Assembly (NCBI GenBank): GCA_964585245.1
Contig: CAZPCV010000002.1
Coordinates: 1-52,361 of the forward strand
Length of the DNA: 52,361 nucleotides
Reading direction: 5' to 3'
From: an uncultured Gammaproteobacteria bacterium
Lineage (GTDB): Bacteria > Patescibacteriota > Patescibacteriia > Magasanikbacterales > GWA2-37-8
In this document: positions 34,276-49,540 of the stretch, in pieces
Layout of the letters: every line of letters begins with the position of its first letter
Numbering within the stretch: the stretch's first letter is position 1
Notes under the pieces: generated by a model
The model's input: only the letters and a program-made list of their open reading frames with translations
Database searches by the model: none
What the model was told of the DNA's origin: nothing
Position numbers and translations under genes: made by a program

Positions 34276-37200
34276 TTAGTAGGTGAAGGTCTTGTATTGC
34301 AACGGAAGATCTTGATCCATGGCAGTGATGCTGGAAGTAGCATCGTCGGTCCAGACAATGTCGCTGGAACCAATGCGGATAGACAAGCTCTTTGTGGCGG
34401 CAGCGTTGGTGGTGTCCAAAACAACCCAGAACGTTCTGGTTTGACCGGACGAAATGCTGACATCGGTGAATCCGGCATCAGTGATTTCAGTGTCACCAAA
34501 GTTTTGATTGCCGCTAGCCAACCATGAAGTCGTAACCAAGATGTTGCCAGAAGCAACTGAATCTTTGTAAACCGTCAAAGCGCGGTTTGCGGTGTTCGAA
34601 ATCGTGGTTGAAAGATCGAAGTTAATCGATTTAACAGTGGCAGAATAGGTGCCTGCGTTGGCTAAGTTCGTAATAGTGAATTTAGCAACAGTCTGGGCAG
34701 CTGAACCACCAGCAGCGCCAGAAGGAGTGTCGCTACTCCAAGCAGTGACCAATTTAGCCTTGTATAACGTGGTGGTGTTGGCATAGGCAACCAAGTTGTC
34801 GGCTCCTACTCCCGGAAGGGTAACACCAGTGTTAACAACGGTCGGGTTGATAGTTACACCAGAGGAAGCGCCGGTCGAAACAACGCCCATTTGGCTTCCA
34901 GTGTAGTTCTTGAGGATGGCCAAGTTAGCAGTCTGACCAGTGGTGGCCGGAGAACCGAGATCATCATAGGTGGTGAGGTCGGCTTTCACGATAACCACTT
35001 TAGAGGTGCCTTTTGGTACTTGGAAGTTCAAACCGCTGAACACGGCGTGAGCCAAGGTACCAGTGGAGTTGGTGTTGCTGAACGACGGTACAGCCGTGCC
35101 AATCATGGCATTGTTGTCGTTGTCGTACAAGCGGATGTTTTTAACCGTACCGGTGGCAGCCGAGCTGACACGATTACTGACAACTAATTCAGTAATATTG
35201 ATAGGTTCGGTGGTGCTGGCGGTAAAGTTGAAGCGGCCAAGTTCCACATCAACAGCGCCCATCAATTGGTTGCGGGCAACTGGAGTGTTGGAATCGATCG
35301 CGACAGTGTAAGCGCCAGAGCTGGAGATGTAGTTGTATTGCAAGTTCAAAGCCTGACTAGAAACACTAGCAGAGCCACCGGTGTCTTTACCAGAAGCGAC
35401 AACAGCGTCGGCCTGGATAAGAGCGGTGCTAGCCGTGGTGAAACCAGCTTTCAAGTCCGCGTAAACGCGAATTACGTACTGAGCTCCGTTTGCAACAACT
35501 ACTGCAGGAGAAATGTTGAAAGTATAGCTGTTAGCAGTGGCGCAGCTGGTTGAAGGGTTGGAATAGGTGGTACCAAGCTGTTTGCCATCTTTGTCTTTCA
35601 ACGTAAGGTTCTGCATGTAGCTGCCGATACAGGTACCAGCTTGAGCATCTTTCAAGGTAACTTGAGAGAGTTCAACGGCTTCACCCGCGCCGGCGGTGAC
35701 TACAAACGAGCCTACCTGAACCTGGCTGGCGTTAACCGTACCATTCGGATTAGAAGAAGTACGATTACCAAACGAGGTGTCAAGAGACATCGTTACGGTA
35801 CCAGATTTAACGGTCAAGGTGTTGGCGTTCTGAGCAACCGTGTTGATGGAAGTCAACGAAACAGTGCCCTGGGCATTGCTGGAACCAGCAGATAAGCCCG
35901 TAACTACCGTGCTGTTAAGCGCAGCAGTGCCAGTAAGGTCGGCTTTAACTTCTACCGCAGCCGTAGTACCGGCTTTGATGATGAAGCTATTGCCGAAAGT
36001 GCCCCAGCCAGAATTAGCAGCACCGTTACCAGTCAAAGTACTGATAGTGCTACCAACTTGGGAACCGTTCACGAGCAAGCGAACGTTCGCCAAGGTCTGA
36101 CCAGAAGTGATGGTGGAAGATACACTCAAAGAGCTTACTTTCACATCTTCACCATTGGCTTTCCAATCGAATTTGGCCAAGGTGAGGTTGGTGCCATTTA
36201 AAGCAATGTTACCAGTCGGCGAAGTGGTCGACAAAGTCTGAGTCAAAGAACCGGAGTTAACGGTAATGTTGACGGCAGTACCACTCGAGTTTGGTTGAAC
36301 AATCGAGAAGCTGTCGGTGCCATTGGTCTTCAAGTAAACATTGTAATTTTTGTCGTAAGAAACGACGTCAGCCGCATTCTGGAGCGTGGCGCGCAAGGTG
36401 CGGGTGGTGCCGGCTACGATGTCGGCTTTCAAGCTGAGGGTCTTGGTCTGACCTTTGGTGATCAAGTATGGGGCAGCCATCATGTCAAAGGTAACGGTTT
36501 TATCCGCAGCCATATCAACTACGGTCGTACCCAACTGTTTGCTGCCATCCCAGAGCGAGAAATTCTTCACATCACCAACGTTGACAGAGCCAACGACAGT
36601 GAATTTTACTTTGCGAAGTTCTACGTCCTGGTTGCTGCTTACAGCCTGCATTCTCCAGATTTCGTAGGCATTGGTGCCAGGATCAACCGTGGTGTTAGCC
36701 GACGGAGAAACGCTGGAAATTACCAATTTACCAAGATCAGTTACGCTGGCGCTGGTGAAAATGTTACCAGTTAATGGGAACGATCCACCGACGGTGCCAC
36801 TCGCATTAGACATTACGCTCGCGGCGTCAGCCAAAGCGAATTGGAAGGTCTTGCCAGAAGAAACTTGGTTCTTGAGGTCAAGCAATACTTTGAGCGATTT
36901 CTTGGTACCTTTGGTAACCATGAAAAGGCCAGAGCTGTTGCTGAAAGTCACCATGCTATTGGTGATACTTGGGTTGCTAGCCACGACCATGCCGGTTTCA
37001 TCCTGCAAGTGCATGTTAGCAATATCGGTATCAGCCGAGATACCCATGCGTTTCAAAGCCAATGAAGTTACTTTAACATCACCACTGTTGTCAGCGGCAA
37101 CATCAAATTTCAACACTGGGATCATTGCTTGAGCACCATTGGTTCCGGCATCGGAAACGATGGTAGAAGCAAATGGATTGTCCGAAGACAATGAAACACT

Positions 37201-37971
37201 AACCGCGCCACCAGTCGTTGGGGTGGTTGGGGTGGTTGGGGCAGTTACGCCACCACTCTGGGTTTTGTCAGTAATTGATTTTACTTCAGCGTCAAGCACA
37301 GCACCCTTCATCAGACCGGCTACGGCTGAATCAGCTACTGGGCGAACAAACATGCTCTGGAAACCGTTAGCGGTCATGCCGGTAGCGGTAACTTCGCGCA
37401 ATTTGCTGTCTACGTCCACATACCAGGTTTTGCCGCCGTTTGAGACGAGCATACCAGGGTGAACTTTAGCTTCGGTAACATCCGTGCCAAGCTTGGTGTA
37501 GTTTGGCCAGAATTCATCGTTGATCACCTGTGGCTGGAAGAAATTTCCATACAAAGCTTTAGCAGCTTCTGGGGTGATCTTGGCTTTTACATTGCCCGGT
37601 TCAACGACATAAAGCTGATCCGAAGACGGACGCTTCACGACATAAGAACCTGGAGCAAAGTTAACTCCATATGGAGGGTTGGTTGGAAGACTCAAGGAGT
37701 CAAAACAAGCCATGCTTACAGTGATATAACCACCGTAAGTTGGGCGCCAACTCTTGAATACGTATCCGCTTGGGAAATATTGAACCTGGGTCTGGTTGTT
37801 AACTACGTAAATAGCTGGTTTACCGGAAACCTTGATCATGTCTCCCGGGTTTAAGGTCGGACAAACCGCAGCGTTAGCAGCGACTGGTAAGACCAAATTC
37901 AAACCGGAAAAAACGACGGTTACGGCAAACGTTACAACCGAATTCAGGATTTTGCCTAATGTTTTATTCAT
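34276..37971 (-). CDS. Large secreted Thr/Ser/Val/Asn-rich repeat surface protein (S-layer- or adhesin-like)
   Basis: Start is set at MNKTLGKILNSVVTFAVTVVFSGLNLVLPVAANA (signal peptide). The ORF-track start at 38085 adds 38 aa. Contains a PTTPTTPTT linker and at least 6 divergent ~100-aa modules, each with an F-x-[VF]-x-A...[DE]-V-x-[VL] strand pair and a G-x-x-K-x-[LV]-x-[VL]-x-[AL]-D-[LI] motif (GTKKSLKVLLDL, GQTKTLSLKADI, GTTAAVEVKADL, GAQYVIRVYADL, GTSKVVIVKADL). Has a strong terminator and a leader of about 230 nt. Confidence 0.65.
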   Translation of the reverse strand: MNKTLGKILNSVVTFAVTVVFSGLNLVLPVAANAAVCPTLNPGDMIKVSGKPAIYVVNNQTQVQYFPSGYVFKSWRPTYGGYITVSMACFDSLSLPTNPPYGVNFAPGSYVVKRPSSDQLYVVEPGNVKAKITPEAAKALYGNFFQPQVINDEFWPNYTKLGTDVTEAKVHPGMLVSNGGKTWYVDVDSKLREVTATGMTANGFQSMFVRPVADSAVAGLMKGAVLDAEVKSITDKTQSGGVTAPTTPTTPTTGGAVSVSLSSDNPFASTIVSDAGTNGAQAMIPVLKFDVAADNSGDVKVTSLALKRMGISADTDIANMHLQDETGMVVASNPSITNSMVTFSNSSGLFMVTKGTKKSLKVLLDLKNQVSSGKTFQFALADAASVMSNASGTVGGSFPLTGNIFTSASVTDLGKLVISSVSPSANTTVDPGTNAYEIWRMQAVSSNQDVELRKVKFTVVGSVNVGDVKNFSLWDGSKQLGTTVVDMAADKTVTFDMMAAPYLITKGQTKTLSLKADIVAGTTRTLRATLQNAADVVSYDKNYNVYLKTNGTDSFSIVQPNSSGTAVNITVNSGSLTQTLSTTSPTGNIALNGTNLTLAKFDWKANGEDVKVSSLSVSSTITSGQTLANVRLLVNGSQVGSTISTLTGNGAANSGWGTFGNSFIIKAGTTAAVEVKADLTGTAALNSTVVTGLSAGSSNAQGTVSLTSINTVAQNANTLTVKSGTVTMSLDTSFGNRTSSNPNGTVNASQVQVGSFVVTAGAGEAVELSQVTLKDAQAGTCIGSYMQNLTLKDKDGKQLGTTYSNPSTSCATANSYTFNISPAVVVANGAQYVIRVYADLKAGFTTASTALIQADAVVASGKDTGGSASVSSQALNLQYNYISSSGAYTVAIDSNTPVARNQLMGAVDVELGRFNFTASTTEPINITELVVSNRVSSAATGTVKNIRLYDNDNNAMIGTAVPSFSNTNSTGTLAHAVFSGLNFQVPKGTSKVVIVKADLTTYDDLGSPATTGQTANLAILKNYTGSQMGVVSTGASSGVTINPTVVNTGVTLPGVGADNLVAYANTTTLYKAKLVTAWSSDTPSGAAGGSAAQTVAKFTITNLANAGTYSATVKSINFDLSTTISNTANRALTVYKDSVASGNILVTTSWLASGNQNFGDTEITDAGFTDVSISSGQTRTFWVVLDTTNAAATKSLSIRIGSSDIVWTDDATSSITAMDQDLPLQYKTFTY

Positions 37972-38204
37972 AGATAAATTTAAAATAAATCCTTGCTCAC
38001 ATACGTACCAGCTTTCGCCGGCATCACATGAGTCAAGGTTTGTTCCGCTTCCTATGCTTTGAGGCACAGTTATCGAAACATACAACGACCAGGCAGGCTC
38101 TGTATGAGCCTTCGACCTATCGCACTGGCCAGGACTCGAATATTTTTCTCTCTCCCTGAGTCAGCCCCAAGTTATACCTAAGGCTGATTGCAGCGCTAGA
38201 GAAT

Positions 38205-39557
38205 TTATTTTTTAAATAAAGCGGAATCAATTACGGTCGTAGATGAGGGTACCAAGGTTTTTGTAGCTGATACGGTGCCTGACACCATGATGGTAACGAC
38301 CGGCACCTGTGGCGCTTGGGCAGAATCCACAGTACTCGTACTCACGATCACCTGAATATCTTTTGCTCCTACTGCTCCAGCCACCGCCTCTTTGATAAGA
38401 GGAGTTACTGGCAATACACCATTGGCTTTTTTGATAGCTACATCAGTTTCCGCAATAATATTTTTGCTGTCATTATTTACTTCTTTGATCTTGTCAACTG
38501 CTGCAGAAAGCTGATCTGAATTTACTAACTCCTGAGCTTGAGTAATTTTTTTATTCACCTCAACTGATTTTATTTCAATCGTGGTAGCCGCCGCAGTAGC
38601 CTGGCTGGCTGCCGAGGATAATTCTTTAGAAATTTTTTCCGTTTCGGCAGTGGTAGAAGAATTTTGTTTTCTGATGACTGCCTGAAAATCTTTTACCCCG
38701 GCTTCGGCTGCCTGCGCTATATTCTTTACCAGCGTAACATTTTGTTTGGAGTTATCAACGTCCGTCACAATTGAGCTGATCGCATCATTCAAAACACTTT
38801 TGGCTGCTTCTGGGGAAACCGACTGATCGTCTACTTTAGTAACAAATATCTCAATAGCTTTTACTGCAGTATCTTTGGCTAAATTAGTGGTCGCAGTAAT
38901 TTCCTTGGACAAATCAACGTTGGTGCTGCTGGCCGAGGCTAGATTACTGCTAACTTCTTGGAGGGTGCTTTTTACCTGATCCGTATTTTCTTTGGCATCT
39001 TTAATGGTATCGCCGGACAAATCTTTGTTTAAACTGTCGTTGATATGCTCGACTCCTTCTTTCAAATTGGAGACCGCTTCGGCGATATGAAAATCTTTTT
39101 TCGGATCAGCTGTATCTTTCAAACGTTTGATTTCAGTGACGCGATTCTGAGAATAGGTGATATGAGCCTGAGTGCGGACATTGCCATTGCCCACTGTTTC
39201 TGCCAGGGCCACTTTGGTTTTTTCTAAAGCAATCTTGACCGGATACAAGGTATCCCCCGGCAGAGCTTCGTTCGAAGCAGAACTGGTAGCTACCCAACCG
39301 CTTAAGCCAAGAAGCGAAACCAACACCAAAACACCAATCGGACGCACTACATTATACACGAATTGACGAGGCAAAAAAAGTGACAGCGCCGGCCACACGC
39401 GTTCAAACATCGGCACGATTTCACTGTTGGCCTGAGGCAAGGTATTGGTAATCTGCGACAACAGCAAATTACGATTGCCCGCTACCCACTCCGGGCGCGG
39501 ACTCACCTCGCCGTGGCGAAGATTTTTTAATTGATTGATGAGATTATTTTTCTTCAT
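38205..39557 (-). CDS. Single-pass membrane protein, putative anti-sigma factor (DUF5667-like)
   Basis: 450-aa ORF that overlaps the sigma-factor gene by 14 nt. Has a short cytoplasmic N-terminus, one helix (PIGVLVLVSLLGLSGWVATSSA), and a long low-complexity/coiled extracytoplasmic region. The function is inferred from gene order. Confidence 0.45.
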   Translation of the reverse strand: MKKNNLINQLKNLRHGEVSPRPEWVAGNRNLLLSQITNTLPQANSEIVPMFERVWPALSLFLPRQFVYNVVRPIGVLVLVSLLGLSGWVATSSASNEALPGDTLYPVKIALEKTKVALAETVGNGNVRTQAHITYSQNRVTEIKRLKDTADPKKDFHIAEAVSNLKEGVEHINDSLNKDLSGDTIKDAKENTDQVKSTLQEVSSNLASASSTNVDLSKEITATTNLAKDTAVKAIEIFVTKVDDQSVSPEAAKSVLNDAISSIVTDVDNSKQNVTLVKNIAQAAEAGVKDFQAVIRKQNSSTTAETEKISKELSSAASQATAAATTIEIKSVEVNKKITQAQELVNSDQLSAAVDKIKEVNNDSKNIIAETDVAIKKANGVLPVTPLIKEAVAGAVGAKDIQVIVSTSTVDSAQAPQVPVVTIMVSGTVSATKTLVPSSTTVIDSALFKK

Positions 39558-40098
39558 ACGGTGGAACTTCCAGTATGTCCTGTAATTTTTTTAAAGCTCG
39601 ATGTAGCGTAACACGTACCGCCACTTTCTTTTTATTCATTATTTCGGCGATCTCCGGAATGTCGAGCTCTTCTACAAAACGTAGCGTAATAACTTCTTGA
39701 TATTCTTGTTTTAATTTTTTTAAACCTGCTACTACGCTTTCGTTGGCTATACTTATTTCTATTCTTTCTTGCCATTTTCCTTTATCACTCACTTCAACAT
39801 CTTCACTCAATAATCCGGGTTGGGAAGCGCGAGCACGATAAAGGTCGATAATAGCGTTACGTGCCATCCGATAGAGTAACCCGCTAAAACTTTGCACCTC
39901 TTTATTTTCTTGCAGGTAATTCCAAGCTTTCAAAAAAACATCGGCCGAAATATCTTCGGCTTGCTCCCGATTATTGACTTTAAAAAAAACAAAACGATAA
40001 ATCTGTTTGACGTATGCATCGTATAATTTTGCGAACGCCTCCGGATCTCGTTTGGTTTGAATTCTAAAGAGAAGTAGTTTTTCAGTGAGCTTGTTCAT
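39544..40098 (-). CDS. RNA polymerase sigma factor, sigma-70 family group 4 (ECF-type)
   Basis: 184-aa ORF. Region 2 (IYRFVFFKV.N.EQAEDISADVFLKAW) and region 4 HTH (YQEVITLRFVEELDIPEIAEIMNKKKVAVRVTLHRALKKL). Confidence 0.88.
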   Translation of the reverse strand: MNKLTEKLLLFRIQTKRDPEAFAKLYDAYVKQIYRFVFFKVNNREQAEDISADVFLKAWNYLQENKEVQSFSGLLYRMARNAIIDLYRARASQPGLLSEDVEVSDKGKWQERIEISIANESVVAGLKKLKQEYQEVITLRFVEELDIPEIAEIMNKKKVAVRVTLHRALKKLQDILEVPPYEEK

Positions 40099-40614: not shown

Positions 40615-40947
40615 ATGGAAACATCGCTTGCGCCCAAAGAAATTATCCGCGTTTCCATCTCGGAAGCTGCCCGCTTGTTCGGGGTCAATACCCAAACCAT
40701 CCGGCGTGCCATCAAGGCTCAAGAGGTAACCTACGTAATCGTAAGCGGCCGTTATAAGCTAAATTTCGAGAGCCTGGTAAAATGGTCACAGCGCCACACC
40801 ACCATCAAAAATAAATTAGTCAAAAAGGGTATTGGCCAGTTTGTTGATAAATGGAAAATAAAAAACCCTCTTTTTTCTCCTAATCCCAAATCACTCACAC
40901 CCCCTAACCAACCGGCCGTCTCTGAGCCCACGACTCCTCTACCCTAG
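40615..40947 (+). CDS. Small helix-turn-helix DNA-binding protein (excisionase/MerR-superfamily HTH_17-like)
   Basis: 110-aa ORF. ISEAARLFGVNTQTIRRAIKAQEVTYVIVSGRYKL matches the excisionase-type winged-HTH pattern (from memory). Pro-rich C-terminal tail. Confidence 0.65.
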   Translation: METSLAPKEIIRVSISEAARLFGVNTQTIRRAIKAQEVTYVIVSGRYKLNFESLVKWSQRHTTIKNKLVKKGIGQFVDKWKIKNPLFSPNPKSLTPPNQPAVSEPTTPLP

Positions 40948-41045: not shown

Positions 41046-42791
41046 ATGTCGAGCTTTTTACACCGCCACTATCATCGCCATTATCACGGCGTCTATAATA
41101 ACCCGAAAAAATTATTTATCTTTGATCTGGTTTTGCTCGGCATTGCGACACTCATGCTCGGGTCCAGTTTATTTTTCTTTTTCTGGAAACCTGGCATCAC
41201 TGATCTGATCGATCTAAAAATTTCTCTCGGCGATACGCGCCTAAAAAGCGGCGACGAGGTAATACTTACGATCGACTACACCAACCGTAGTAAAAAATAT
41301 TTAAAACAACCAACCTTGGCGCTGCGGCTCCCCCCAGGTTTCATCATTGATCGTACCAAAACTCCGGAATCCGTATTTTCTAAAAACTCTATTTTCGCCC
41401 TAGAGGATCTACACCCCGGTGCCTCCGGACAAGTCGGCGTGAGTGGGCAATACTGGGCGATGCCAGGACAAGAAGAAAGAATCTTCGCTACACTCTCGTA
41501 TCAGGTAGAAAACGACAGTGAACGTGAACAAAAGTTAGGGGCGTATTTGGCCACGTTGCCGGAAAGTGTGCTCGCCACCAACTTTACTACCGCTGCTTCA
41601 TCATCATTCCCTAATTTTCCACTAGCCTTTACCTTCAAAATAAAAAATACTTCTGCCTCCGCTATATCGGGCATTAGCATCCTCACCGAAGGAGCCAAAG
41701 CTACTTTTGCTGATAATACTCCCCTCAAAAATATTACTCTCCAAAGCGGCGAAGAAATCAGCTTGAACGGAACCTTGCTCTCGCCCACTACCCCTGGCGA
41801 ACAGACAGCCTCATTTACCACCCAGGTACTCGCCAACAATAATCCGATCACCCAGAGTAAAAATCCTACCACCTTTTCGGTGATCGCTCCGTCTTTGACG
41901 ACGAGCGTTAGTACCAATAACACGCTCGACTATATCGAACCGGGACAAATCCTGCCCATTCAGATTGCCTGGAAAAATAATACACCCTTTGCTTTAAAAA
42001 ATTTGCGTCTGCGCCTTAAAGCGAATCCTGGATTGATTAATCTAAAAACTACCGCCACAGAAAATAAATTAAAAATTATTGATGGTGATCTGATCATCGA
42101 CAGCGATGCGCGTACCGCCTTCGCCAATGGTGCAGCGAGCCAGGGCGAAGAGTTTTCTTTGAACCTGACGCTTGCCCCGAACTTCAATGCCGTAGACAAA
42201 AGCCAAACTGAATTGCGCCTTACCACCGTAATAGAAGCTGAAAGTGATCAAGTGGCCGGCCAAGTGTTTGCTAGTAAAGGCGCTGACCTTATTCTTCCGC
42301 TCGCGACTGATTTAACACTCAACACGCAAGTTCGTTATTACACTGCCGATGGCGACCAACTTGGCCGCGGGGCATTGCCACCACGGGTGGGAGAAACGAC
42401 AAAATACTGGGTCTTCATCGAAGCGCTAAATACTATCAACCCAATCGAAGATACCGCGCTGACGATTCAGTTACCTAGCGGTGTCATCCCGACCGGTAAA
42501 CAAAGTGTTACCCTCGGGAGCCCGCTAAAATGGAACGAAACGAACCGTACGCTCACCTGGAATATTTTGGATATTCCGGCACAAAGTAAAACCGGCTGGT
42601 ATTTCGAAGTGGCCGTGACCCCAACCGCGAGCGATGTCGGAAAAAATCTAACCTTACTGAATAATGTTAATTTTGTCGCCAGCGATAAAAAAGTGCATAA
42701 GAAATTCAATCTGGGCGTGGCGCAATTGACGAATGTGCTGAAAGCCAATGACCGCGGGGCGAAGAGTGGAGCAAAAGTGGTGAGTAACTAA
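41046..42791 (+). CDS. N-terminally membrane-anchored extracytoplasmic repeat protein (DUF11-like beta-sandwich repeats?), function unknown
   Basis: 581-aa ORF with a His-rich N-terminus (HRHYHRHYH), one helix (LVLLGIATLMLGSSLFFFFW), then repeated segments of the type x-L-x-[IL]-x-Y-x-N-x-S/T...L-P-x-G. The family assignment is tentative. Confidence 0.45.
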   Translation: MSSFLHRHYHRHYHGVYNNPKKLFIFDLVLLGIATLMLGSSLFFFFWKPGITDLIDLKISLGDTRLKSGDEVILTIDYTNRSKKYLKQPTLALRLPPGFIIDRTKTPESVFSKNSIFALEDLHPGASGQVGVSGQYWAMPGQEERIFATLSYQVENDSEREQKLGAYLATLPESVLATNFTTAASSSFPNFPLAFTFKIKNTSASAISGISILTEGAKATFADNTPLKNITLQSGEEISLNGTLLSPTTPGEQTASFTTQVLANNNPITQSKNPTTFSVIAPSLTTSVSTNNTLDYIEPGQILPIQIAWKNNTPFALKNLRLRLKANPGLINLKTTATENKLKIIDGDLIIDSDARTAFANGAASQGEEFSLNLTLAPNFNAVDKSQTELRLTTVIEAESDQVAGQVFASKGADLILPLATDLTLNTQVRYYTADGDQLGRGALPPRVGETTKYWVFIEALNTINPIEDTALTIQLPSGVIPTGKQSVTLGSPLKWNETNRTLTWNILDIPAQSKTGWYFEVAVTPTASDVGKNLTLLNNVNFVASDKKVHKKFNLGVAQLTNVLKANDRGAKSGAKVVSN

Positions 42792-42805
42792 AATAAAAAT
42801 ATTCA

Positions 42806-42954
42806 GACAAAAATACTCTCGAATATTTCGAGAGTATTTTTATTTTTTACTTCATTTATTCCAGACGCTACCACTATTTCCAAACTTTGGAACTAATGGT
42901 AGCTGCGTCTGGAACGAAGCTACTGTGGTTGTTTTGCCCGCGAGGTGGGGCGGA
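42806..42954 (-). repeat. Conserved structured 3' element, copy A (GC box + bulged rod hairpin + terminator)
   Basis: Aligns by hand with 43935-44082. The 62-nt block 42862-42923 is identical to 43992-44053. The GC box TTTTGCCCGCGAGGTGGG (42932-42949) is identical to 44060-44077. The imperfect hairpin at 42861-42912 pairs CCAGACGC+TACCA with TGGTA+GCGTCTGG, has a 3-nt bulge (gct) and an inner TTCCAA/TTGGAA stem. Confidence 0.85.
42809..42848. terminator. Bidirectional intrinsic terminator (part of repeat copy A)
   Basis: A 15-bp stem AAAAATACTCTCGAA/TTCGAGAGTATTTTT with a 3-nt loop and T-runs on both strands. It serves the convergent genes 41046-42791 (+) and 42976-43638 (-). Confidence 0.75.
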
Positions 42955-42975
42955 TGTGGAAACGGGGGGTGGCGG

Positions 42976-43638
42976 TTAATACATAAAGTCCTTTTCCGAG
43001 GTCGGCAGACCCTCGGACGACTTGATCTTCAGGCCTGCCTCCTCATAGAGGAGGGGGCCCTCAATCCGGACCACCATCCTCCCACCGACGTTCGCTTGGA
43101 TCGTGTCAGCCACGATCCAGATGGTCCGCGAGTTGGAGTCGGCGACCGCGAACGTTGGGGAGAGACCTAAGTAGGCCACGAAGCTTGGCGTCGGGTGCCC
43201 CACCGAATCACACTCCGACACGAGGTTAGCCGTCGCGACGCTGTCCCGATAGACGTGCAACGCACGCACCGGGAAAGTCGTGGCGATGCGAACGGGGAGG
43301 TAGTCGCCGTACAGGGTGTGCTCACGCCCGACCCCGCCCGCCCGGTTGTACACATCGACGACCGCGACGACCTGCGCGTGAGAGACACCAGCCAGCCCAG
43401 AAGGGGTGGCTATGTTCCACTGAACCTGCCCCAAGAGATCGGACTGGGGCGGGCTACCGTACGCCGCGACGTCGGGCACTTCCCAGCACTTCCGTGCGGG
43501 AGGGGGACTGAAGTCAGGCGGGACGGACTGGTCGGTGGTCGACCCGTCGACCATCGAACCACCCATGTCGCCCGACCCGTCGGGCAAAGTACAACCAATC
43601 ACCGCTAGCAAGCACAGAAATGCAAACGTTCTCGTCAT
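42976..43638 (-). CDS. G+C-rich hypothetical lipoprotein (cassette 1)
   Basis: 220-aa ORF. The signal peptide plus lipobox MTRTFAFLCLLAVIGC and a purine-rich sequence (GAGAAAGAGA) precede the ATG. Hand-counted G+C is 35-36 of 60 nt in two lines, against 21 of 60 in a glycan-operon line. Several overlapping alternative-frame ORFs are expected artefacts of high G+C. Confidence 0.7.
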   Translation of the reverse strand: MTRTFAFLCLLAVIGCTLPDGSGDMGGSMVDGSTTDQSVPPDFSPPPARKCWEVPDVAAYGSPPQSDLLGQVQWNIATPSGLAGVSHAQVVAVVDVYNRAGGVGREHTLYGDYLPVRIATTFPVRALHVYRDSVATANLVSECDSVGHPTPSFVAYLGLSPTFAVADSNSRTIWIVADTIQANVGGRMVVRIEGPLLYEEAGLKIKSSEGLPTSEKDFMY

Positions 43639-43764
43639 ATCTCTTTCTCTCGCTTTCTTTTCTAACGCTTACTTCTTCAACACAGAGAAACTTGCACTCC
43701 TTTCTTCCGTCAAAAAACACTCTGTACCTATGCGCTCATACCGAACGCAACCCTTCCTAACCCT

Positions 43765-43825
43765 TTTTCTGCACGGAAAATAAAGTACTGGCTACCTACC
43801 AATCACCTATTTTCCGTGCAGAAAA
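43765..43825. repeat. Perfect 18-bp inverted repeat with 25-nt spacer between the two cassettes
   Basis: TTTTCTGCACGGAAAATA (43765-43782) is the exact reverse complement of 43808-43825. There is no flanking U-run on either strand, so it is not a typical terminator. Confidence 0.8.
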
Positions 43826-43934
43826 TAAAATTTGACCGAATAATTTAGTTTTACTTAATAAAAAGAACAATAGCAAAGCCTAGCATCTTTTATAAAAATG
43901 TCAATAGCCGTAGACACAAAATTAAATTATTCAT

Positions 43935-44082
43935 GACAAAAAATCCTCTCGAAATATTCGAGAGGATTTTTATTTTTCGCCTCGTTTATTTCAGACGCTA
44001 CCACTATTTCCAAACTTTGGAACTAATGGTAGCTGCGTCTGGAACGAAGCTACGCTTTATTTTGCCCGCGAGGTGGGCCGGA
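43935..44082 (-). repeat. Conserved structured 3' element, copy B (GC box + bulged rod hairpin + terminator)
   Basis: See copy A. The 62-nt identical core is at 43992-44053, the GC box at 44060-44077, and the terminator hairpin AAAAATCCTCTCGAA/TTCGAGAGGATTTTT at 43939-43971. Confidence 0.85.
43939..43978 (-). terminator. Intrinsic terminator downstream of cassette-2 lipoprotein gene (part of repeat copy B)
   Basis: A 15-bp stem with a 3-nt loop and T-runs on both sides. The sequence is nearly identical to the terminator at 42809-42841. Confidence 0.65.
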
Positions 44083-44093
44083 GGGAGGCGCTC

Positions 44094-44453
44094 TTACGGC
44101 GCAAACTGGAGGACGTTGCTAATGTTGTCCTGCGCGGAGTTACGCACCGTGCAGGTGTAGTTGCGGGTGCTGACCGGAGCGCTGAAGGGCACAGTGCCCC
44201 TCCAGCCCCCTTCTGCGAAGGGCAGGGGCTCTCGAAGGAGGTCCTGCCCATGGATGTCCTGGCAAATCAGCGACCAATTTCCCTGCCGCTGCGAGACCTT
44301 GGTGGTCCAGCGGATCTGAACCAGATCCCCATCTCTCGGTCCCGGGGGCACCAACTCGATAGTCACAGGGAAAGACTCTTCCCCGGTGGTCACGTTGTTG
44401 GGCCCGCAGGCTATCAGGAGCGTCAGAAACAGAAGGCTTTTGAGATTACGCAT
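44094..44453 (-). CDS. G+C-rich small hypothetical lipoprotein (cassette 2)
   Basis: Start is set at MRNLKSLLFLTLLIAC (signal peptide plus lipobox), preceded by AAAGAGG 7 nt upstream. The ORF-track start at 44510 adds 19 aa. One 60-nt line was hand-counted at 41 of 60 G+C. The mature part is unrelated to cassette 1. Confidence 0.7.
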   Translation of the reverse strand: MRNLKSLLFLTLLIACGPNNVTTGEESFPVTIELVPPGPRDGDLVQIRWTTKVSQRQGNWSLICQDIHGQDLLREPLPFAEGGWRGTVPFSAPVSTRNYTCTVRNSAQDNISNVLQFAP

Positions 44454-44500
44454 GTTCAAAACCTCTTTTGAATTTTGATAGAAAACCCCAAGGCCTACTC

Positions 44501-44541
44501 TTTCTATCATAAATTACAAAAATTGTCAATACATATTGACA
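44501..44541 (-). promoter_or_regulatory. Candidate promoter of cassette 2 embedded in a 7-bp palindrome
   Basis: TGTCAAT-acat-ATTGACA (44524-44541) gives TTGACA on both strands. The minus-strand -35 (44529-44524) is followed after 17 nt by the weak -10 TAGAAA (44506-44501). Confidence 0.3.
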
Positions 44542-44570
44542 CATAATAATCAACGTATTTTTTCTCTAAC

Positions 44571-44605
44571 AAAAAATTAAAAAGAGCCCTTTTTCCAGGC
44601 TCTTT
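44571..44605 (-). terminator. Intrinsic terminator of metK
   Basis: An 8-bp stem AAAGAGCC/GGCTCTTT (44581-44588 / 44598-44605) with a 9-nt loop, followed on the minus strand by TTAATTTTTT. Confidence 0.65.
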
Positions 44606-44624
44606 TTAAAAAATTATTCAAATG

Positions 44625-45776
44625 TTACTTTTTCATCGCTTCTTTTAGCTTGCCCGCCATATCCGTCTTCTCCCACGGAAACTCTTTCCGGCCAAAATGT
44701 CCGTACGCGGCTGTGCCCCGATAAATCGGCCGGAGCAAATTAAGATGTTCAATAATTTTACCAGGGCGAAAATCAAATACTTTAGTTACCACGCGCACCA
44801 ATTCTTCGTCCGAAACGGTACCCGTACCAAAGGTATTAACCGCAATACTCGTTGGCTCGGCTTTGCCGATTACGTAGGCCACTTGCACCTCAACGCGCTC
44901 GGCCAGGCCTGCAGCGACAATATTTTTGGCCACATAGCGGGCCATGTACGCGCCCGAGCGATCTACTTTCGACGGGTCTTTGCCCGAGAAGCAGCCGCCC
45001 CCATGTCGGCCCATGCCGCCATAGGTATCAACAATAATTTTGCGGCCCGTGAGACCAGTATCCCCTTGCGGGCCGCCGACTACAAACCGGCCGGTCATGT
45101 TTACATAAAATTGCGTTTTAGTATCCAGATACTCTTTACAGACCGGCTCGATCACGTGCTTGATAATATCGGCCCTAATTTGCGTAGTTTTAATTTCTGG
45201 ATGATGTTGCGCCGATACTACCACATTTTTCAACCGCACTGGTTTATTATCCACATATTCTACCGCTACCTGCGTTTTCCCATCCGGACGCAAATACGGA
45301 ATAATCCCTTTTTTACGAACTTCGGTAAGGCGTCGGGCGAGACGATGGGACAAATCAATCGGCAGCGGCATTAATTCTTTGGTCTCGTTACACGCATAGC
45401 CGAACATGAGCCCCTGATCCCCGGCCCCCTGCTGTTCGACAGTTTTTTTGTCCACGCCCTGGGCAATATCCGGCGACTGTTCATGAATAGATACCAAAAT
45501 ACCGGCATGCTCGGCATCGATACCGTACGCCGGATCTGTATAACCGATCGATTCAATCACTTCGCGCGTAATTTTTTGCACATCTACATAGCCACGCGTG
45601 GTTACTTCGCCACCCACAATTACCAACCCGGTGGTGGTGAAGCATTCCACGGCCACATGAGAGTGTTTGTCTTGAGTCAAAAGAGCATCAAGTACCGCGT
45701 CGGATATTTGATCGCAAATTTTATCCGGGTGGCCTTCGGTTACTGATTCTGACGTAAAAATGAAATTCTGAGCCAT
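44625..45776 (-). CDS. metK: S-adenosylmethionine synthetase
   Basis: [45 protein letters not shown]-type motif ([19 protein letters not shown]) and VAYVIG. Start is set at [10 protein letters not shown]. The ORF-track start at 45815 adds 13 aa that fall inside leader hairpins. Confidence 0.93.
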
Positions 45777-46077
45777 ACAAAAATTAGTAAAAACTCGGAA
45801 ATAGCCAGAGGACATAGCCGCTCGCTACGGCTCGCGAGCTAGGTCTTCCAGGGGGCTTCCGCCCCCTAGGACACTCCGACTAAGTCGGAGCTGTTACCCC
45901 TTGCCGCAAAAGGTGGGAACCGTTTGGTTCCCAAACCCTCCCCATGTACCGAAATTGTAAAATTTCGGTACATGACTATCTCAGGAAGTTGTTGGACAAT
46001 AATCGTAGTATCGACCTGCCTCGCGATGAATCAGCCAACAACTAACACCATTTCCGAATAAATTAATTAAACTACTT
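45777..46077 (-). promoter_or_regulatory. ~300-nt G+C-rich, hairpin-dense leader of metK (candidate riboswitch or other structured RNA; class not recognised)
   Basis: Six hand-verified hairpins: 45988-46042 (8-bp closing stem GTTGTTGG/CCAACAAC), 45943-45974 (14-bp perfect stem), 45915-45932 (GGGAACC/GGTTCCC), 45874-45890 (CTCCGAC/GTCGGAG), 45850-45867 (AGGGGGC/GCCCCCT, GGAA loop on the minus strand) and 45820-45839 (GCTCGC/GCGAGC). The surrounding DNA is A+T-rich. Confidence 0.4.
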
Positions 46078-47601: not shown

Positions 47602-49533
47602 ATGAAAGAAAAAAATACTAACTTTTCTCTATTTTTTATTGCATTTGCTATTTTGGCACTGTGCACAACACTCTGGCCATTTAACTATTCTCTTGGTGCT
47701 CCACCCGGAACTCCGTATACCCCTGGCGAAACAATCACGCCGAGTTGTTCACCGGGTAGCGCAAATTGTACCGTCATGACACCCGCGACCTCGGGTGCAA
47801 ACTCCGACATTACTTCGCTCACTGGCCTCACTACTCCACTCAGCATTGGGCAAGGTGGCACCGGGCTTTCGAACACGCCGGACTATGGCAAAATTCCCGT
47901 GGGTAACGGCAGTGGTGGGTATACCTTGACTGCCACTTCGTCACTGGGTCTTTCCGCGGGGAGTGCAACTCCAGCGGGTTCATCTGGGCAGTTACAGTAT
48001 AACAGTAGCGGCAGTTTGGGGGCAGACAGTGGTTTGTCTTACAGTAGTGTTGCACAGCGACTCACCACCATCTACGCGTCTACCACAGCTTTGACTGGAT
48101 CATATGTCTCTTCGACAAACCTGTTTGCTGGATCATTTACTCTTGGTTCGTTGACCGGTTTCCTCAAAGCGACCGCTGGAGCAATTAGCACTGCACTGAT
48201 AGATTTAGCGAATGATATAACTGGCATATTACCGATTGCCAACGGTGGTACAAATGTTTCTACCGCTCCTAGCTATGGCCAGATACTAGTTGGGAACAGC
48301 GGTGGTGGGTATACGTTGACTGCAACCTCTTCGCTGGGAATTAACGGCGGTCTCGGCATTGCGGGATCAGATACGCAGGTGCAATTTAACAACAGCGGAA
48401 GTTTGGGTGCGAATTCAGGATTAACATACAATAGCGGCGCACAACGACTTGCGGCTACATATGTTTCAAGTACTGGCCAGAGCAGTAGCTATGTTTCGTC
48501 AACAAATTTAATTGCTGGTTCATTTAATTTGGGATCGATTACCGGTTTTCTAAAGGCAACTGCCGGTGCTGTAAGTAACGCACTTATTGATTTAGCTAGC
48601 GACATCACAGGTATTCTACCGATAGCAAATGGCGGCACGGGCCTTACCAGCGCTCCTAGCTACGGACAGTTGTTGATGGGTAATAGTAGTGGCGGATATA
48701 CGCTTACAGCGACGTCATCACTTGGCCTTAGCACGCTTTCTATCGGTGGATCAGATACGCAGGTGCAATTTAACAATTCTGGTAATTTAAGTGGCAATTC
48801 CGGCTTAACGTACACTAGTACTGCGAACCGGCTCACCGCCACATATGTTTCAAGTACCGGTATTAGCGGCTCATACGTATCTTCTACCAGCTTGACCTCT
48901 GGATCATTTACCTTGGGATCGCTCACGGGATTCTTAAAGGCAACAGCTGGAGTAATTAGCACCGCTCTCGTCGATCTAACCAGCAATGTAACTGGTATTT
49001 TGCCGGTGGCCAATGGCGGAAGCGGAACATCTACTGCTTTTACTGCCGGCTCTGTGGTTTTTGCGGATTCAAACAACAAATACAGCCAAAGCAACAGCAG
49101 CTTCTTCTGGGACAATACCAATAAACGCTTGGGTATTGGTACTGCCAGTCCGGGCACGGCTTTTGAGGTCTCAGGCACAGCTACAGCGTCACATATTAAG
49201 GGTGGAGGCAGTACACCTAGTATTTCCGCAGGTGTAGGTGCCGGCACCGGAGGAATCGCCCTTATTTCTGGCACAGATACTGCTGGGCAAATTACCGTAA
49301 CTGCCGGAGTGTTACCAACCGCAGCAGCAACCATTGCTACGGTTACTTTTGCTACCGCATATAGTGGCATTCCTTATGTACAAATCACCCCTGCCAACAG
49401 CACTGCCGCAGCACTCAGCGGCAACGCTCAGGTCTATCCCACCGCCCTCACCACCACGTTTGTATTAACACCAGGCACCACCGCCCTTTCCAACGCCAGC
49501 GTCTATAAGTGGAATTACTTAATCGTAGAATAA
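47602..49533 (+). CDS. Secreted tandem-repeat protein, tail-fibre-like
   Basis: 643-aa ORF with a signal peptide (FSLFFIAFAILALCTTLW). Has three and a half ~128-136-aa repeats built on DITGILPIANGGTG...GGYTLTATSSLG...GSDTQVQFNNSG...SYVSSTNL.AGSF.LGS.TGFLKATAG, followed by a distinct ~165-aa C-terminal domain. Confidence 0.6.
   Translation: MKEKNTNFSLFFIAFAILALCTTLWPFNYSLGAPPGTPYTPGETITPSCSPGSANCTVMTPATSGANSDITSLTGLTTPLSIGQGGTGLSNTPDYGKIPVGNGSGGYTLTATSSLGLSAGSATPAGSSGQLQYNSSGSLGADSGLSYSSVAQRLTTIYASTTALTGSYVSSTNLFAGSFTLGSLTGFLKATAGAISTALIDLANDITGILPIANGGTNVSTAPSYGQILVGNSGGGYTLTATSSLGINGGLGIAGSDTQVQFNNSGSLGANSGLTYNSGAQRLAATYVSSTGQSSSYVSSTNLIAGSFNLGSITGFLKATAGAVSNALIDLASDITGILPIANGGTGLTSAPSYGQLLMGNSSGGYTLTATSSLGLSTLSIGGSDTQVQFNNSGNLSGNSGLTYTSTANRLTATYVSSTGISGSYVSSTSLTSGSFTLGSLTGFLKATAGVISTALVDLTSNVTGILPVANGGSGTSTAFTAGSVVFADSNNKYSQSNSSFFWDNTNKRLGIGTASPGTAFEVSGTATASHIKGGGSTPSISAGVGAGTGGIALISGTDTAGQITVTAGVLPTAAATIATVTFATAYSGIPYVQITPANSTAAALSGNAQVYPTALTTTFVLTPGTTALSNASVYKWNYLIVE
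47803..49026 (+). repeat. Intragenic tandem repeats (periods 408, 387, 384 nt; last copy partial)
   Basis: Repeat starts are at aa 68, 204, 333 and 461 (nt 47803, 48211, 48598, 48982). Conservation is strong at protein level, with many synonymous differences at nucleotide level. Confidence 0.85.
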
Positions 49534-49540
49534 GAGTTCT

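Follow-up and report, generated by a model that had tools for sequence, protein, structure and literature searches.

A shared hairpin-terminator module behind two unrelated GC-rich lipoprotein genes at a hot spot of gene turnover in Magasanikbacteria

In the gap between the gene of a 581-aa membrane protein and metK, a Magasanikbacteria-type (CPR) bacterium carries two lipoprotein ORFs, each followed by the same structured element. This raises the question whether the shared element is a recombination site of a capture system, of the kind known from integrons and HUH-type elements, or a 3' UTR module common to two otherwise different genes. Both options had been put forward in an earlier note made from the sequence alone, whose statements on ORFs, composition, lipoboxes, repeat, spacing and folding all hold. 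The window analyzed here is the whole stretch of 52,361 nucleotides, and the features are listed in Table 1.

Table 1. Coordinates of the features discussed, numbered from the first nucleotide of the window.
Feature	Position	Strand	Description
C-terminal domain of native 1269-aa surface protein (gene 34276-38085)	34276..34740	-	normal-GC paralog of ORF1 mature domain, GC3 0.53
581-aa membrane protein gene, left flank	41046..42791	+	conserved; convergent with ORF1; terminator A common to both
Module A, ORF1 tail	42793..42954	-	GC box 42929-42954, rod hairpin 42849-42920, A-rich linker, terminator 42807-42843
ORF1, 220-aa putative lipoprotein	42976..43638	-	starts MTRTFAFLCLLAVIGC; lipobox LAVIGC; GC 0.63, GC3 0.78
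Long hairpin in ORF1 5' leader	43762..43828	-	TTTTCTGCACGGAAAATA ... TATTTTCCGTGCAGAAAA
ORF1 promoter-like site	43877..43904	-	TTGACA 43899-43904, 16 nt, TAGGCT 43877-43882; TGC before second hexamer
Module B, ORF2 tail	43923..44082	-	GC box 44057-44082, rod hairpin 43979-44050, A-rich linker, terminator 43939-43971
ORF2, 119-aa putative lipoprotein	44094..44453	-	starts MRNLKSLLFLTLLIAC; lipobox LLIAC; GC 0.60, GC3 0.76
ORF2 promoter-like site	44501..44529	-	TTGACA 44524-44529, 17 nt, TAGAAA 44501-44506; TGA just upstream of second hexamer
metK (S-adenosylmethionine synthetase), right flank	44625..45815	-	own terminator 44577-44609; Pfam families recorded for orthologs

Both ORFs stand out when GC is followed along the sequence, as had been expected: in 200-nt windows it is 0.60-0.675 inside the ORFs vs 0.27-0.45 nearby. 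Likewise, their GC3 values (0.78 and 0.76) lie above those of the 37 other ORFs in the window (0.31-0.52). In both, the codon positions are ordered GC3 > GC1 > GC2 and therefore the ORFs show the pattern of genuine coding sequence. The sense-strand GC skew of the GC-rich segment is about 0 and, with A at 0.19 and T at 0.17, the strand is not depleted of adenine. A chimeric assembly at the metK-side GC boundary is excluded, because an independent k-mer assembly (Logan, SRR11567520) runs from metK through ORF2 into the shared 62-nt core described below at 100% identity; it ends exactly where this 62-nt repeat ends. Searches with Rfam 15 gave nothing at gathering score in 42000-45000 (best E-value 0.06), and across the whole window a tRNA-Val was the sole match.

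The 581-aa protein has 191 homologs, and those with source names come from Magasanikbacteria, Parcubacteria or Patescibacteria, while metK is 74-93% identical to its counterparts in relatives by tblastn, with one exception at 63%. In 16 related Magasanikbacteria genomes the two genes are direct neighbors with 60-210 nt between them, and in 13 genomes (window included) the gap is filled with differing genes that are often GC-rich. The insertion between a native membrane-protein gene and metK is thus located at a hot spot with cassette-like turnover, and the contents of this interval vary between relatives.

Both ORFs are predicted to encode lipoproteins, as their translations start with a signal peptide and a lipobox of the form [LVI][ASTVI][GAS]C. 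Protein comparison found no similarity between the two, in agreement with the earlier description. A native paralog was found for ORF1 and no relatives for ORF2. Residues 74-220 of ORF1 are paralogous to residues 1116-1269 of a 1269-aa protein encoded in the window (29% identity, E = 8e-11), and the alignment extends to a C-terminal F-x-Y. Since this native domain is of normal GC, ORF1 is not foreign by family. Its GC3 climbs only past the signal peptide. A database search with ORF1 returned only a self-match and a full HMMER search only P0124 and P0123, both weakly; P0124, which contains a paralog of the ORF1 domain, sits on a contig of 43% GC. ORF2 gave only self-matches among 5.8 billion proteins and no match in Pfam, PHROG, NCBIfam or PADLOC. 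It is predicted to fold as a 7-strand beta sandwich (AF2 pLDDT 66), and a Foldseek comparison of this model with the PDB gave nothing below E = 0.03.

The ~160-nt tail behind each ORF consists of a GC box, a bulged rod hairpin and a bidirectional terminator, and begins 26 nt (ORF1) and 16 nt (ORF2) past the stop codon. The identical block, the GC box and the near-identical terminator are present in both copies as reported before. The 62-nt core is exactly the same at 42862-42923 and 43992-44053, and shuffles of the window never gave a match of this type. Outside the core, the 103 aligned columns of modules A and B include 12 with substitutions and 8 with gaps (a difference at 12.6% of positions); under uniform divergence, zero differences in the core would have a probability of P = 2e-4. 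Folding of each copy as RNA resulted in the bulged rod hairpin and the terminator, with z-scores of -8.9 (A) and -7.8 (B). Both terminators were called by a terminator scan, form 15-17 pairs with A and T runs on either side, and are predicted to be of the bidirectional intrinsic (Rho-independent) type. Changes between A and B in the terminator stem and outer stem preserve pairing (A-U to C-G, G-U to G-C), and the A-tract and T-tract lie where the relative L003, whose site is empty, has its only terminator. The trailer of module B extends to the ORF1 promoter. That of module A runs to the stop codon of the convergent 581-aa gene, and because the repeat ends there, the whole intergenic gene end has been duplicated. 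The 3' ends of ORF1 and ORF2 are unrelated and lie in no repeat. Two copies of the core are present in the 52-kb window, both in this gap and with homologous flanks, and no copy of the element was found in the three public collections searched.

Upstream, each ORF has a promoter-like site and a leader, of roughly 50 nt for ORF2 and ~240 nt for ORF1. The pattern TTGACA-N16/17-TG(C/A)-TAGNNT is also found upstream of the GC-rich ORFs in the relatives L004, L007 and L008, and long 5'-UTR hairpins precede GC-rich ORFs in relatives too.

The combination of an ORF with a structured 3' element was confirmed as a recurrent arrangement: in relatives, non-homologous GC-rich ORFs are followed by a bulged rod hairpin and a terminator, singly or in double tandem. 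Hairpins of the same build, with a lower stem of 7-10 bp, a 5' bulge of 2-4 nt and an upper stem of 10-17 bp ahead of the terminator, stand behind GC-rich ORFs in L004, L008 and, twice, L007, in which a third gene of the array lacks the hairpin. Between these three genomes the hairpins (74-89% identical) are better conserved than metK (74-76%) and the 581-like gene (66-73%). Genomes ~25% apart in metK have the lower stem and bulge without any change in sequence, and the upper stem covaries, with compensatory changes in 4 of 23 pairs. This hairpin class, which is conserved at orthologous positions across genera, is under selection. A model built only from the hairpins of the relatives gave the hairpins of modules A and B the top two ranks in the window, both in sense orientation (25.6 and 17.6 bits), and the relatives' family was found only in this gap in 1.37 Mb (80 related loci plus the window). 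In 8 of 11 hairpins the more stable fold is that of the sense strand, with sense-oriented G-U pairs, and the other three fold equally well or better as antisense. By a strict criterion, rod hairpins are located behind 12 of 48 GC-rich ORFs vs 43 of 409 ordinary genes, a ~3-fold enrichment (P = 0.008). Long 3' hairpins are common at gene ends in general in these genomes, since rod hairpins of similar build follow ~10% of ordinary genes. The 62-nt core occurs in the window only at this gap.

The 80 related loci contain about 75 GC-rich islets, which are hypervariable, consist of single genes and hold lipoproteins and other secreted or membrane proteins at fixed hot spots. The swapped genes measure 0.4-0.8 kb, and the GC3 of the swapped part is 0.6-0.94, with 38-50% GC for the genomes as a whole. 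Between genomes that are ~95% identical, the mature lipoprotein is replaced from the signal peptide to the 3' hairpin. In L018 and L050, for instance, the flanks are 95% and 92% identical and the first 23 aa are the same, the mature part cannot be aligned, and similarity returns at the base of the 3' hairpin. The interior is replaced likewise between L036 and L062, where blastn similarity returns further downstream, past the variable upper stem of the hairpin. The rod hairpin thus coincides in position with a boundary of variation. Hypervariable and GC-rich segments share their boundaries, just past the lipobox and at the 3' hairpin, and long hairpins flank many islets on both sides. Syntenic homologous islets are GC-rich even where the flanking genes are only 65-74% identical.

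The second option of the earlier note, a shared 3' UTR module, is favored by the sense-strand hairpin with its terminator. In its full form, a hairpin-terminator module of the 3' UTR would bound swap-prone surface-protein units and would have been duplicated by recombination, a reading held with a confidence about midway between belief and doubt. Taken alone, the tail is probably a gene end of an ordinary kind, although elaborate in build. Each unit would comprise a promoter, a structured leader, an ORF for a surface lipoprotein with fast turnover and the 3' tail. In the mRNA, this tail of ~160 nt would be read as a C-rich GC box, the bulged rod hairpin and, 5-15 nt on, a terminator of A-tract, stem and T-tract, which in module A would also stop the convergent 581-aa gene. 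The rod hairpin may work in the RNA, where it could stop 3' exonucleases, mark a processing site or bind a protein. Leader (or signal peptide) and tail are conserved around an ORF that is not, and for this reason they could double as homology arms, and ordinary homologous recombination after DNA uptake could replace or add units at the hot spot. Unequal recombination may have given rise to the tandem pair, or a second unit may have been inserted that brought along a copy of the entire 3' intergenic region. The identity of the core could be kept by short-patch gene conversion or by constraint on the sequence itself. The invariant lower stem and bulge, together with 62 of 62 identical core positions, suggest a sequence-specific recognition that a generic stabilizer would not need and that would fit a site read at the DNA level too. 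The GC-richness of these genes falls outside the explanation by gene ends and homology arms.

Composite gene ends that combine a 3'-UTR stabilizer with a bidirectional terminator are known, such as the 3' 'retroregulator' of the Bacillus thuringiensis cry genes. They share with this locus a long sense-strand 3'-UTR hairpin directly upstream of a terminator between convergent genes and an element that is portable between unrelated ORFs. Here, however, the hairpin has a fixed build with a lower stem that is invariant across genera and is enriched behind hypervariable GC-rich genes. Replacement (flexible) genomic islands and mosaic surface-antigen genes, which homologous recombination exchanges by way of conserved flanks, resemble the locus in their fixed hot spot between conserved genes, in content that varies among close relatives and in breakpoints within conserved flanks (signal peptide, 3' UTR). 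They differ in that here single genes are exchanged, the conserved arms are structured UTRs and the swapped part is GC-rich.

A more far-reaching model is considered improbable. Magasanikbacteria, and perhaps further CPR episymbionts, would run a dedicated diversification of surface lipoproteins, in which bulged rod hairpins of leader and tail would mark a segment that is repeatedly exchanged or converted, through a hairpin-reading enzyme encoded elsewhere or through recombination stimulated by the structures, and GC-biased repair would raise this segment to a GC3 of 0.8-0.9 in genomes of ~40% GC; the tandem pair would represent two units after a recent exchange.

Marginally less probable still is that the bulged hairpin is a recombination site at the DNA level, read single-stranded like attC or the ends of IS608, and that the locus is an integrase-less, CALIN-like array served by a recombinase elsewhere. 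As in integrons and CALINs, short ORFs that are unrelated and differ in composition from the host genome stand in tandem at one site, point the same way and are each followed by a bulged hairpin that is imperfect and strand-specific, here and twice in L007. An invariant lower stem and bulge with a covarying upper stem is typical of protein-recognized hairpins, the replacement boundary of L018/L050 lies at the hairpin base, and the direct repeats would permit excision of a 1,130-bp circle. Capture of the integron or HUH type is nevertheless not supported, on several counts. No recombinase, transposase or RT family, and no Y1 (HUH) transposase of the RAYT type, was found among ORFs of at least 100 aa in the 52 kb, and no recombinase, HUH or RT family is recorded within 10 kb in three relatives (L002-L004). 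IntI with attI and Pc is absent from the window as well, although CALINs also lack these. The hairpin is indeed without canonical attC boxes, since neither RYYYAAC nor GTTRRRY occurs on either strand of module A or B, and no R''/L''/L'/R' arrangement is present. Each unit has its own promoter-like site and long leader, whereas integron cassettes are mostly promoterless. The repeat passes through the native terminator of the neighboring gene up to its stop codon, and therefore the element is not only a cassette-borne site. Arrays comprise only 1-3 units, the third L007 gene has no hairpin, similar hairpins follow ordinary genes, and the public collections hold no copies.

Two further explanations address the GC-richness, and both are somewhat less probable again and equally so. 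In the first, inverted repeats in leader and tail would promote segmental gene conversion through cruciforms or replication stalling, with GC-biased repair, as a diversification similar to Borrelia vls. In vls, the cassettes code for a lipoprotein, their GC is 49% vs 28.6% for the genome, and the junction is never without inverted repeats (PMC11499132). The surface lipoprotein gene is in both cases hypervariable between conserved ends and GC-richer than its genome. Conversion would fit the common boundaries of hypervariability and GC-richness, the long hairpins on both sides of many islets, the persistence of GC-rich syntenic homologs beside diverged flanks and the status of ORF1 as a GC-enriched paralog of a native domain. 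However, a tblastn search of the window and the loci with both proteins found no silent cassettes besides the distant 1269-aa paralog, the two window genes are unrelated, the GC skew that is strong in vls is absent, bulges and G-U pairs are ill-suited to cruciforms, and the comparison is between genomes and not within a strain or population. We know of no case in which GC-biased conversion of this strength is established in bacteria.

In the second, the ORFs, whose 3' end would include the GC box, would have been imported recently from a high-GC donor such as the host and would have landed beside native hairpin-terminators, the shared tail being the landing context. The codon-position profile fits a genome of roughly 63-65% GC by estimate, searches of 5.8 and 1.84 billion proteins gave no relatives of either protein, and C-rich motifs of a similar kind stand downstream of the stop codon both in ORF1 and in the L003 islet. 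Moreover, genes of the high-GC type occur as islets elsewhere in the lineage, among them pyrF subfamily 2 (GC3 0.91) and an MXAN_6577-like Cys-rich protein (GC3 0.92). For ORF1, the high-GC donor that had been proposed as a speculation, for example the host of an episymbiont, is contradicted by its mature domain, which is paralogous to the native 1269-aa protein with GC3 0.53 and to P0124. In addition, syntenic islets stay GC-rich over divergences at which their composition should have drifted to genome level, the rise in GC3 begins only after the signal peptide, and no match was found in phage or plasmid collections.

An origin of the rod hairpin as a selfish, palindromic REP- or MITE-like repeat that spread beside terminators is very unlikely: it is a long imperfect palindrome with two identical core copies that start with GTAG, as REP elements do, but only two copies are present in 52 kb, in the same gap, the relatives' family is confined to this gap and conserved at orthologous positions across genera, no Y1 transposase is encoded in the window, and GC box, linker and terminator are repeated too, which indicates that a segment was duplicated and not a palindrome inserted. 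Least probable of all is an assembly artefact that joined two alleles, or an allele and a small circle, through the core; the sole ambiguous join lies inside these 62 nt, and the k-mer assembly breaks precisely at their end, but the repeat is shorter than typical reads and larger assembler k-mers, the modules differ outside the core, each has unique flanks, and L007, an independent MAG, has an analogous tandem.

The cells of CPR bacteria are attached to those of a host, and contact is probably made through surface proteins. To our knowledge, little is known about the diversification of these proteins beyond DGRs, for which the CPR lineage is known. DGR targets combine a variable region with a GC-rich IMH (initiation-of-mutagenic-homing sequence) and a downstream hairpin, and resemble the present locus in having a GC-rich box and hairpin directly 3' of a variable surface-protein gene. 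A DGR target was rejected here, as the window contains no template repeat and no RT family, the ORF 3' ends are unrelated and the pattern is not adenine-specific. The ~75 islets and this locus point to a second route of diversification. The sharp rise in GC stops at the limits of the swapped part, has lasted in syntenic homologs and also marks ORF1, which has a native paralog. GC-biased conversion as its cause would make this a bacterial example of unusual clarity; with import from a GC-rich pool as its cause, the rise could give a lead to the hosts of these uncultured organisms. A second hairpin family, with several compensatory pairs, is located behind the permease/tRNA-Val islets.

The two minus-strand ORFs that had been described as GC-rich, mutually unrelated lipoprotein genes were found as stated with respect to coordinates, composition and protein comparison. 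In 200-nt windows they form two GC-rich blocks with peaks of 0.60-0.675 GC, compared with 0.27-0.45 between and beside them. GC content at the third codon position (GC3) is 0.78 for ORF1 and 0.76 for ORF2, and lies between 0.31 and 0.52 for the 37 other ORFs of the window. As GC3 exceeds GC1 and GC1 exceeds GC2 in both genes, it is concluded that they are genuine coding sequences under GC pressure, and their composition (C3 > G3, A about equal to T) is like that of ordinary high-GC genes. Along ORF1, GC3 is 0.55 in the signal peptide and 0.65-0.90 thereafter.

Features of the window and of sister loci from Magasanikbacteria relatives (L-numbers)
Feature	Position	Strand	Remarks
1269-aa surface protein	34276-38085	minus	cluster member; without Pfam match
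DUF5667 protein	38205-39557	minus	cluster member
ECF-type sigma factor	39544-40098	minus	cluster member
Small divergent HTH protein	40615-40947	plus	excisionase DNA-binding type, below cut-off
581-aa membrane protein	41046-42791	plus	cluster member
Module A	42793-42954	minus	begins 26 nt past ORF1 stop
ORF1 lipoprotein	42976-43638	minus	220 aa, signal peptide with ...LAVIGC
Module B	43923-44082	minus	begins 16 nt past ORF2 stop
ORF2 lipoprotein	44094-44453	minus	119 aa, signal peptide with ...LLIAC
Permease/tRNA-Val interval	47602-51205, to tRNA-Val 51356-51430	plus; tRNA-Val minus	second variable site
pyrF subfamily 2 islet	L059 18625-19476	minus	245 bits, GC3 0.91
MXAN_6577-like Cys-rich protein islet	L039 1111-2460	minus	Myxococcota-named family, GC3 0.92
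Third-site hairpins	L004 ~18475-18531, L007 ~20155-20206, L008 ~18041-18095	minus	

The structured element reported 16-26 nt past each stop codon is present in all its parts. Both copies, modules A and B, consist of a GC box, (T)CCG(C/G)CCCACCTCGCGGGCAAAA, a rod hairpin with a bulge, an A-rich linker and a terminator stem-loop with flanking A and T runs. The 62-nt core of the rod hairpin is identical in both modules (42862-42923 and 43992-44053; 0 matches in any shuffle), and outside the core the modules differ by 12 substitutions and 8 gap columns across 103 columns. Given this flanking divergence, 0 differences in 62 positions have a probability of P = 2e-4 if divergence is assumed to be uniform. 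RNA folds of modules A and B were far better than those of shuffled sequences (z = -8.9 and -7.8, respectively), and where the modules differ within the stem of the terminator or the outer stem of the hairpin, pairing is preserved (A-U to C-G, G-U to G-C). The repeat passes through the terminator and reaches exactly as far as the convergent 581-aa gene's stop codon, and the module terminator has the same position as the lone terminator of the sister locus L003, where the site is empty. This indicates that the whole native gene end was duplicated, and not a cassette-borne site.

A 22-mer of the core was absent from GTDB representative genomes, IMG/VR and JGI metagenomes, a relaxed pattern of its stem was absent from JGI metagenomes and IMG/VR, and phage (protein) and plasmid (DNA) collections gave zero matches. 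No Rfam family was found for the region, and in blastn the modules aligned to the 1.4 Mb of sister loci solely through A-rich terminator tracts. Hairpins built alike occur in relatives. The tail is a hairpin-plus-terminator gene end, a known kind of element in a new variant form, and probably an ordinary, if elaborate, one. Of the options raised in the earlier note, a shared 3'-UTR module is favoured, with the tail reading as a composite gene end.

The interval between the 581-aa gene and metK is a hot spot of gene content. Where homologs of the 581-aa protein bear source names, these read Candidatus Magasanikbacteria, Parcubacteria group or Patescibacteria group (CPR). The comparison drew on 80 sister loci of about 20 kb per relative and on 52 kb of the genome under study. 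The 581-like gene and metK are separated by 60-210 nt in 16 genomes, and by 0.6-4.7 kb of other genes in 13 genomes, including the window. The three closest genomes, with metK about 81% identical at the nucleotide level, all differ at the gap. It is empty in L003, contains several small normal-GC genes in L002 (three called and a small secreted-protein ORF), and contains the two GC-rich lipoprotein genes in the window. In a more distant clade the same gap holds GC-rich ORFs with GC3 of 0.66-0.81, one in L004 and one in L008, and in L007 two GC-rich ORFs in tandem are accompanied by a lipoprotein gene with GC3 of 0.54.

In these gaps the order of GC-rich ORF, rod hairpin and terminator was observed in L004, L008 and twice in L007. 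The relatives' hairpin, TCCAGTAGA-(T/C)CCA-AGCTT(T/A)TA(C/G)TAC...loop...TCTACTGGA, is 74-89% identical between genomes, compared with 74-76% for metK and 66-73% for the 581-like gene. Its lower stem and 5' bulge are near-invariant, with one T/C difference in the bulge, and its upper stem covaries, with compensatory changes in 4 of 23 pairs among only four sequences. Conservation extends to the promoter and the first part of the leader (74-81% over 43-110 nt), and the ORFs enclosed between them and the hairpin share no DNA or protein similarity. A covariance model built from the four relatives' hairpins, with the window hairpins left out, identified nothing else in 1.37 Mb with default filters. 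With filters off, the best two hits in the whole window were the two window hairpins, with 25.6 bits (E = 2e-4) and 17.6 bits (E = 0.02), each matching the model from end to end on the sense strand, with a common register. Because generic long hairpins score 10-20 bits with this model, so that 25.6 bits is only marginally above background, a shared architecture is claimed and not proven homology: a lower stem of 7-10 bp starting with TCCNG, a bulge of 2-4 nt in the 5' arm, an upper stem of 10-17 bp and a terminator 5-25 nt downstream. For 8 of 11 hairpins the sense fold was better than the antisense fold, and the G-U pairs are oriented as expected for the sense strand. When viral sequences were scanned for the relatives' motifs, there was either no match or a single chance one, upstream of a terminase gene.

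Among the 80 loci, 75 islets with a GC content at least 0.14 above the local value were identified; they are mostly single genes with GC3 of 0.6-0.94, and lipoprotein signals were present in 13 of 47 scored islet ORFs. A second hot spot is the interval between a permease gene and tRNA-Val, where L015, L018, L036, L050, L062 and L066 carry a GC-rich lipoprotein islet. In the window two proteins are encoded here: a secreted one of 643 aa that contains three ~130-aa repeats (at 47845, 48235 and 48622 in the DNA), and one of 554 aa that has a peptidoglycan-binding domain. The islets at this site are followed by a second hairpin family, ...TCCCG - bulge - GTANCTATA.../...TATAGNTAC - CGGGA..., with several compensatory pairs and then a terminator. 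Sequence homology of the window hairpin to this family was rejected, as its members score 12-19 bits with the covariance model, no better than generic hairpins.

L018 and L050 share flanks with 95% identity over 4.3 kb and 92% over 1.4 kb, whereas the 490 nt for the mature lipoprotein (L018 13276-13765) could not be aligned. The proteins are 38% identical with their first 23 residues the same, and DNA similarity returns at the base of the 3' rod hairpin. Likewise, between L036 (13329-13808) and L062 the mature part is replaced, with flanks 86-91% identical, similar signal peptides and a conserved 3' hairpin base; blastn similarity returns ~55 nt past the hairpin start because the upper stems differ. 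The alignments of both pairs point to replacement of the allele or to hyper-divergence, limited in either case to the GC-rich segment. Hypervariability and GC-richness therefore share boundaries, and ORF1, in which GC3 rises after the signal peptide, matches this pattern. Long hairpins in the 5' leader precede the GC-rich ORFs of L018, L050, L036, L062 and L066, and a conserved AAGGTG...CACCTT stem lies upstream of those in L004, L007 and L008, so that, together with the tail hairpins, many islets are bracketed on both sides. Full-text searches found no description of this pattern, in which hypervariable GC-rich single-gene islets of a CPR lineage occupy fixed hot spots and have conserved structured UTRs at their edges.

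The reading preferred here, held with even confidence, is that these loci are autonomous lipoprotein expression units with a gene-end tail acting at the mRNA level, which are exchanged by homologous recombination. Each gene would be an autonomous unit expressing a surface lipoprotein, and the shared tail would be a composite gene end that is read in mRNA. The bulged rod hairpin may impede 3' decay, mark a site of processing or bind a protein, and the bidirectional terminator would serve the convergent 581-aa neighbour too. As conservation is seen in the leader (or signal peptide) and in the tail but not in the coding part, leader and tail could act as homology arms, through which recombination of taken-up DNA would exchange units at the hot spot or bring in further ones. 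Unequal recombination may have produced the tandem pair, or a second unit may have been inserted together with its own gene-end copy, and the identity of the 62-nt core may reflect short-patch conversion or a sequence-level constraint.

Alternatively, the hairpin might be a single-strand DNA site for a recombinase encoded elsewhere, which would fit the invariant lower stem and bulge and the position of the replacement boundary. This is considered unlikely. Families of recombinases, transposases, HUH enzymes and RTs were not detected in any window ORF of at least 100 aa, in agreement with the earlier note, which had also correctly reported the hairpin to lack canonical attC boxes: attC core sites are absent from both strands of both modules. 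Moreover, each unit has its own promoter, the duplicated segment includes the native terminator, and the arrays are tiny. Of the cassette-like locus that had been proposed, the turnover of gap content stands (gap filled in 13 genomes, 581-like gene and metK adjacent in 16), but capture at a cassette-borne site is not supported.

Structure-stimulated, GC-biased gene conversion, as in vls systems, is attractive because it is the only reading that explains the GC-richness. In Borrelia, vls cassettes have 49% GC in a genome of 28.6% GC, with inverted repeats always at the junction (PMC11499132). Neither silent copies in the window or the sister loci nor GC skew of the two genes were found, and such a mechanism is quite unlikely here. 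A diversity-generating retroelement (DGR) target was rejected, as there is no adenine depletion, no template repeat and no RT in the window.

The origin of the genes was addressed by database searches. Neither protein matched Pfam, PHROGs, NCBIfam or PADLOC, and among 5.8 billion proteins each matched only itself. Exact-protein look-ups for strain variants of the ORF1 protein (P0001) and MetK found neither on record. The predicted structure of ORF1 (pLDDT 40) was too uncertain for use, and Foldseek with the ORF2 model gave generic beta-sandwich noise only. Domain relatives of ORF1, however, could be identified. Its residues 74-220 align throughout, down to the C-terminal F-x-Y, with the final 154 residues of the 1269-aa protein encoded in the window (29% identity, E = 8e-11), and likewise with orthologs of that protein in five relatives. 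Apart from these, a representative-protein search (1.84 billion proteins) yielded only P0123, a 917-aa repeat protein matching ORF1 residues 160-211 (E = 1e-5), and P0124, whose C-terminal domain is of the same type and whose GC3 is 0.34; the contig of P0124 has 43% GC and stems from an SRA run with an adjacent accession. The suggested high-GC host donor is thus not supported for ORF1, a paralog of a native domain with GC3 of 0.53.

Recent import of the ORFs from a high-GC donor is judged improbable. Syntenic homologous islets are GC-rich even where the flanking genes are only 65-74% identical, and this persistence cannot be explained by slow drift to genome composition after one old transfer. 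Of 20 GC-rich ORFs of relatives searched against Pfam, PHROGs, NCBIfam and PADLOC, 12 had no match, 6 had weak sub-threshold matches and 2 belonged to known families. The pyrF subfamily 2 and MXAN_6577-like islets indicate that import from GC-rich donors does occur in the lineage, although the latter is close to the end of its contig and may be chimeric.

That the rod hairpin is a REP- or MITE-like element is very unlikely. The cassette reading is tempered by the finding that long hairpins other than terminators are common behind genes of these genomes. In counts based on simple ORF calling and on folds of minimum free energy, such hairpins lie within 170 nt of the stop in 43 of 409 ordinary genes (10.5%) by a strict criterion, compared with 12 of 48 genes of the GC-rich or intermediate class (Fisher P = 0.008); by a loose criterion the figures are 154 of 409 and 14 of 22.

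With regard to the assembly, the window is an entire NCBI contig of 52,361 nt. At 100% identity, the Logan contig L001 (SRR11567520; 1-1614) matches it through metK, ORF2, GC box and core, and hence the GC boundary on the metK side is real. The Logan contig ends on the last base of the 62-nt core, which shows the core to be repeated in the population sequenced; a stop at a repeat is expected from the assembly graph, presumably with k = 31. The sole possible wrong join in the locus is inside the core. As the flanks of the two modules are distinct, and as an analogous tandem arrangement occurs in the independent MAG L007, an artefact behind the tandem order is hardly credible.

Some further features were observed. 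The left half of the window is a glycan-synthesis cluster. The genes for the 1269-aa protein, the DUF5667 protein, the ECF-type sigma factor, the HTH protein and the 581-aa protein form a cluster that is conserved, whole or in part, in the relatives examined, and the HTH gene adjoins the 581-aa gene in all relatives with gene calls, including the empty-site L003. A separate rod hairpin lies 3' of the DUF5667 gene (window 38146-38203), and most loci examined have a comparable one there. At a third site, a hairpin family TCGTCTAGA...TCTAGACGA lies 3' of GC-rich or intermediate ORFs in three genomes. The ~240-nt 5' leader of ORF1 contains a hairpin with a perfect 18-bp stem (43762-43828, minus strand), from which a GA-rich tract runs up to the start codon. 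C-rich, G-poor tracts are located immediately 3' of the stops of GC-rich ORFs (window 42955-42975 and 44083-44093, minus strand; L003 13728-13790, plus strand), for example CCGCCACCCCCCGTTTCCACATCCGCCCCACCTC and, in L003, CCGCCACCCCGCACATCC...CCCACC; these could be putative rut-like sites, or could pair with the ribosome-binding site through an anti-Shine-Dalgarno-like CACCTC.
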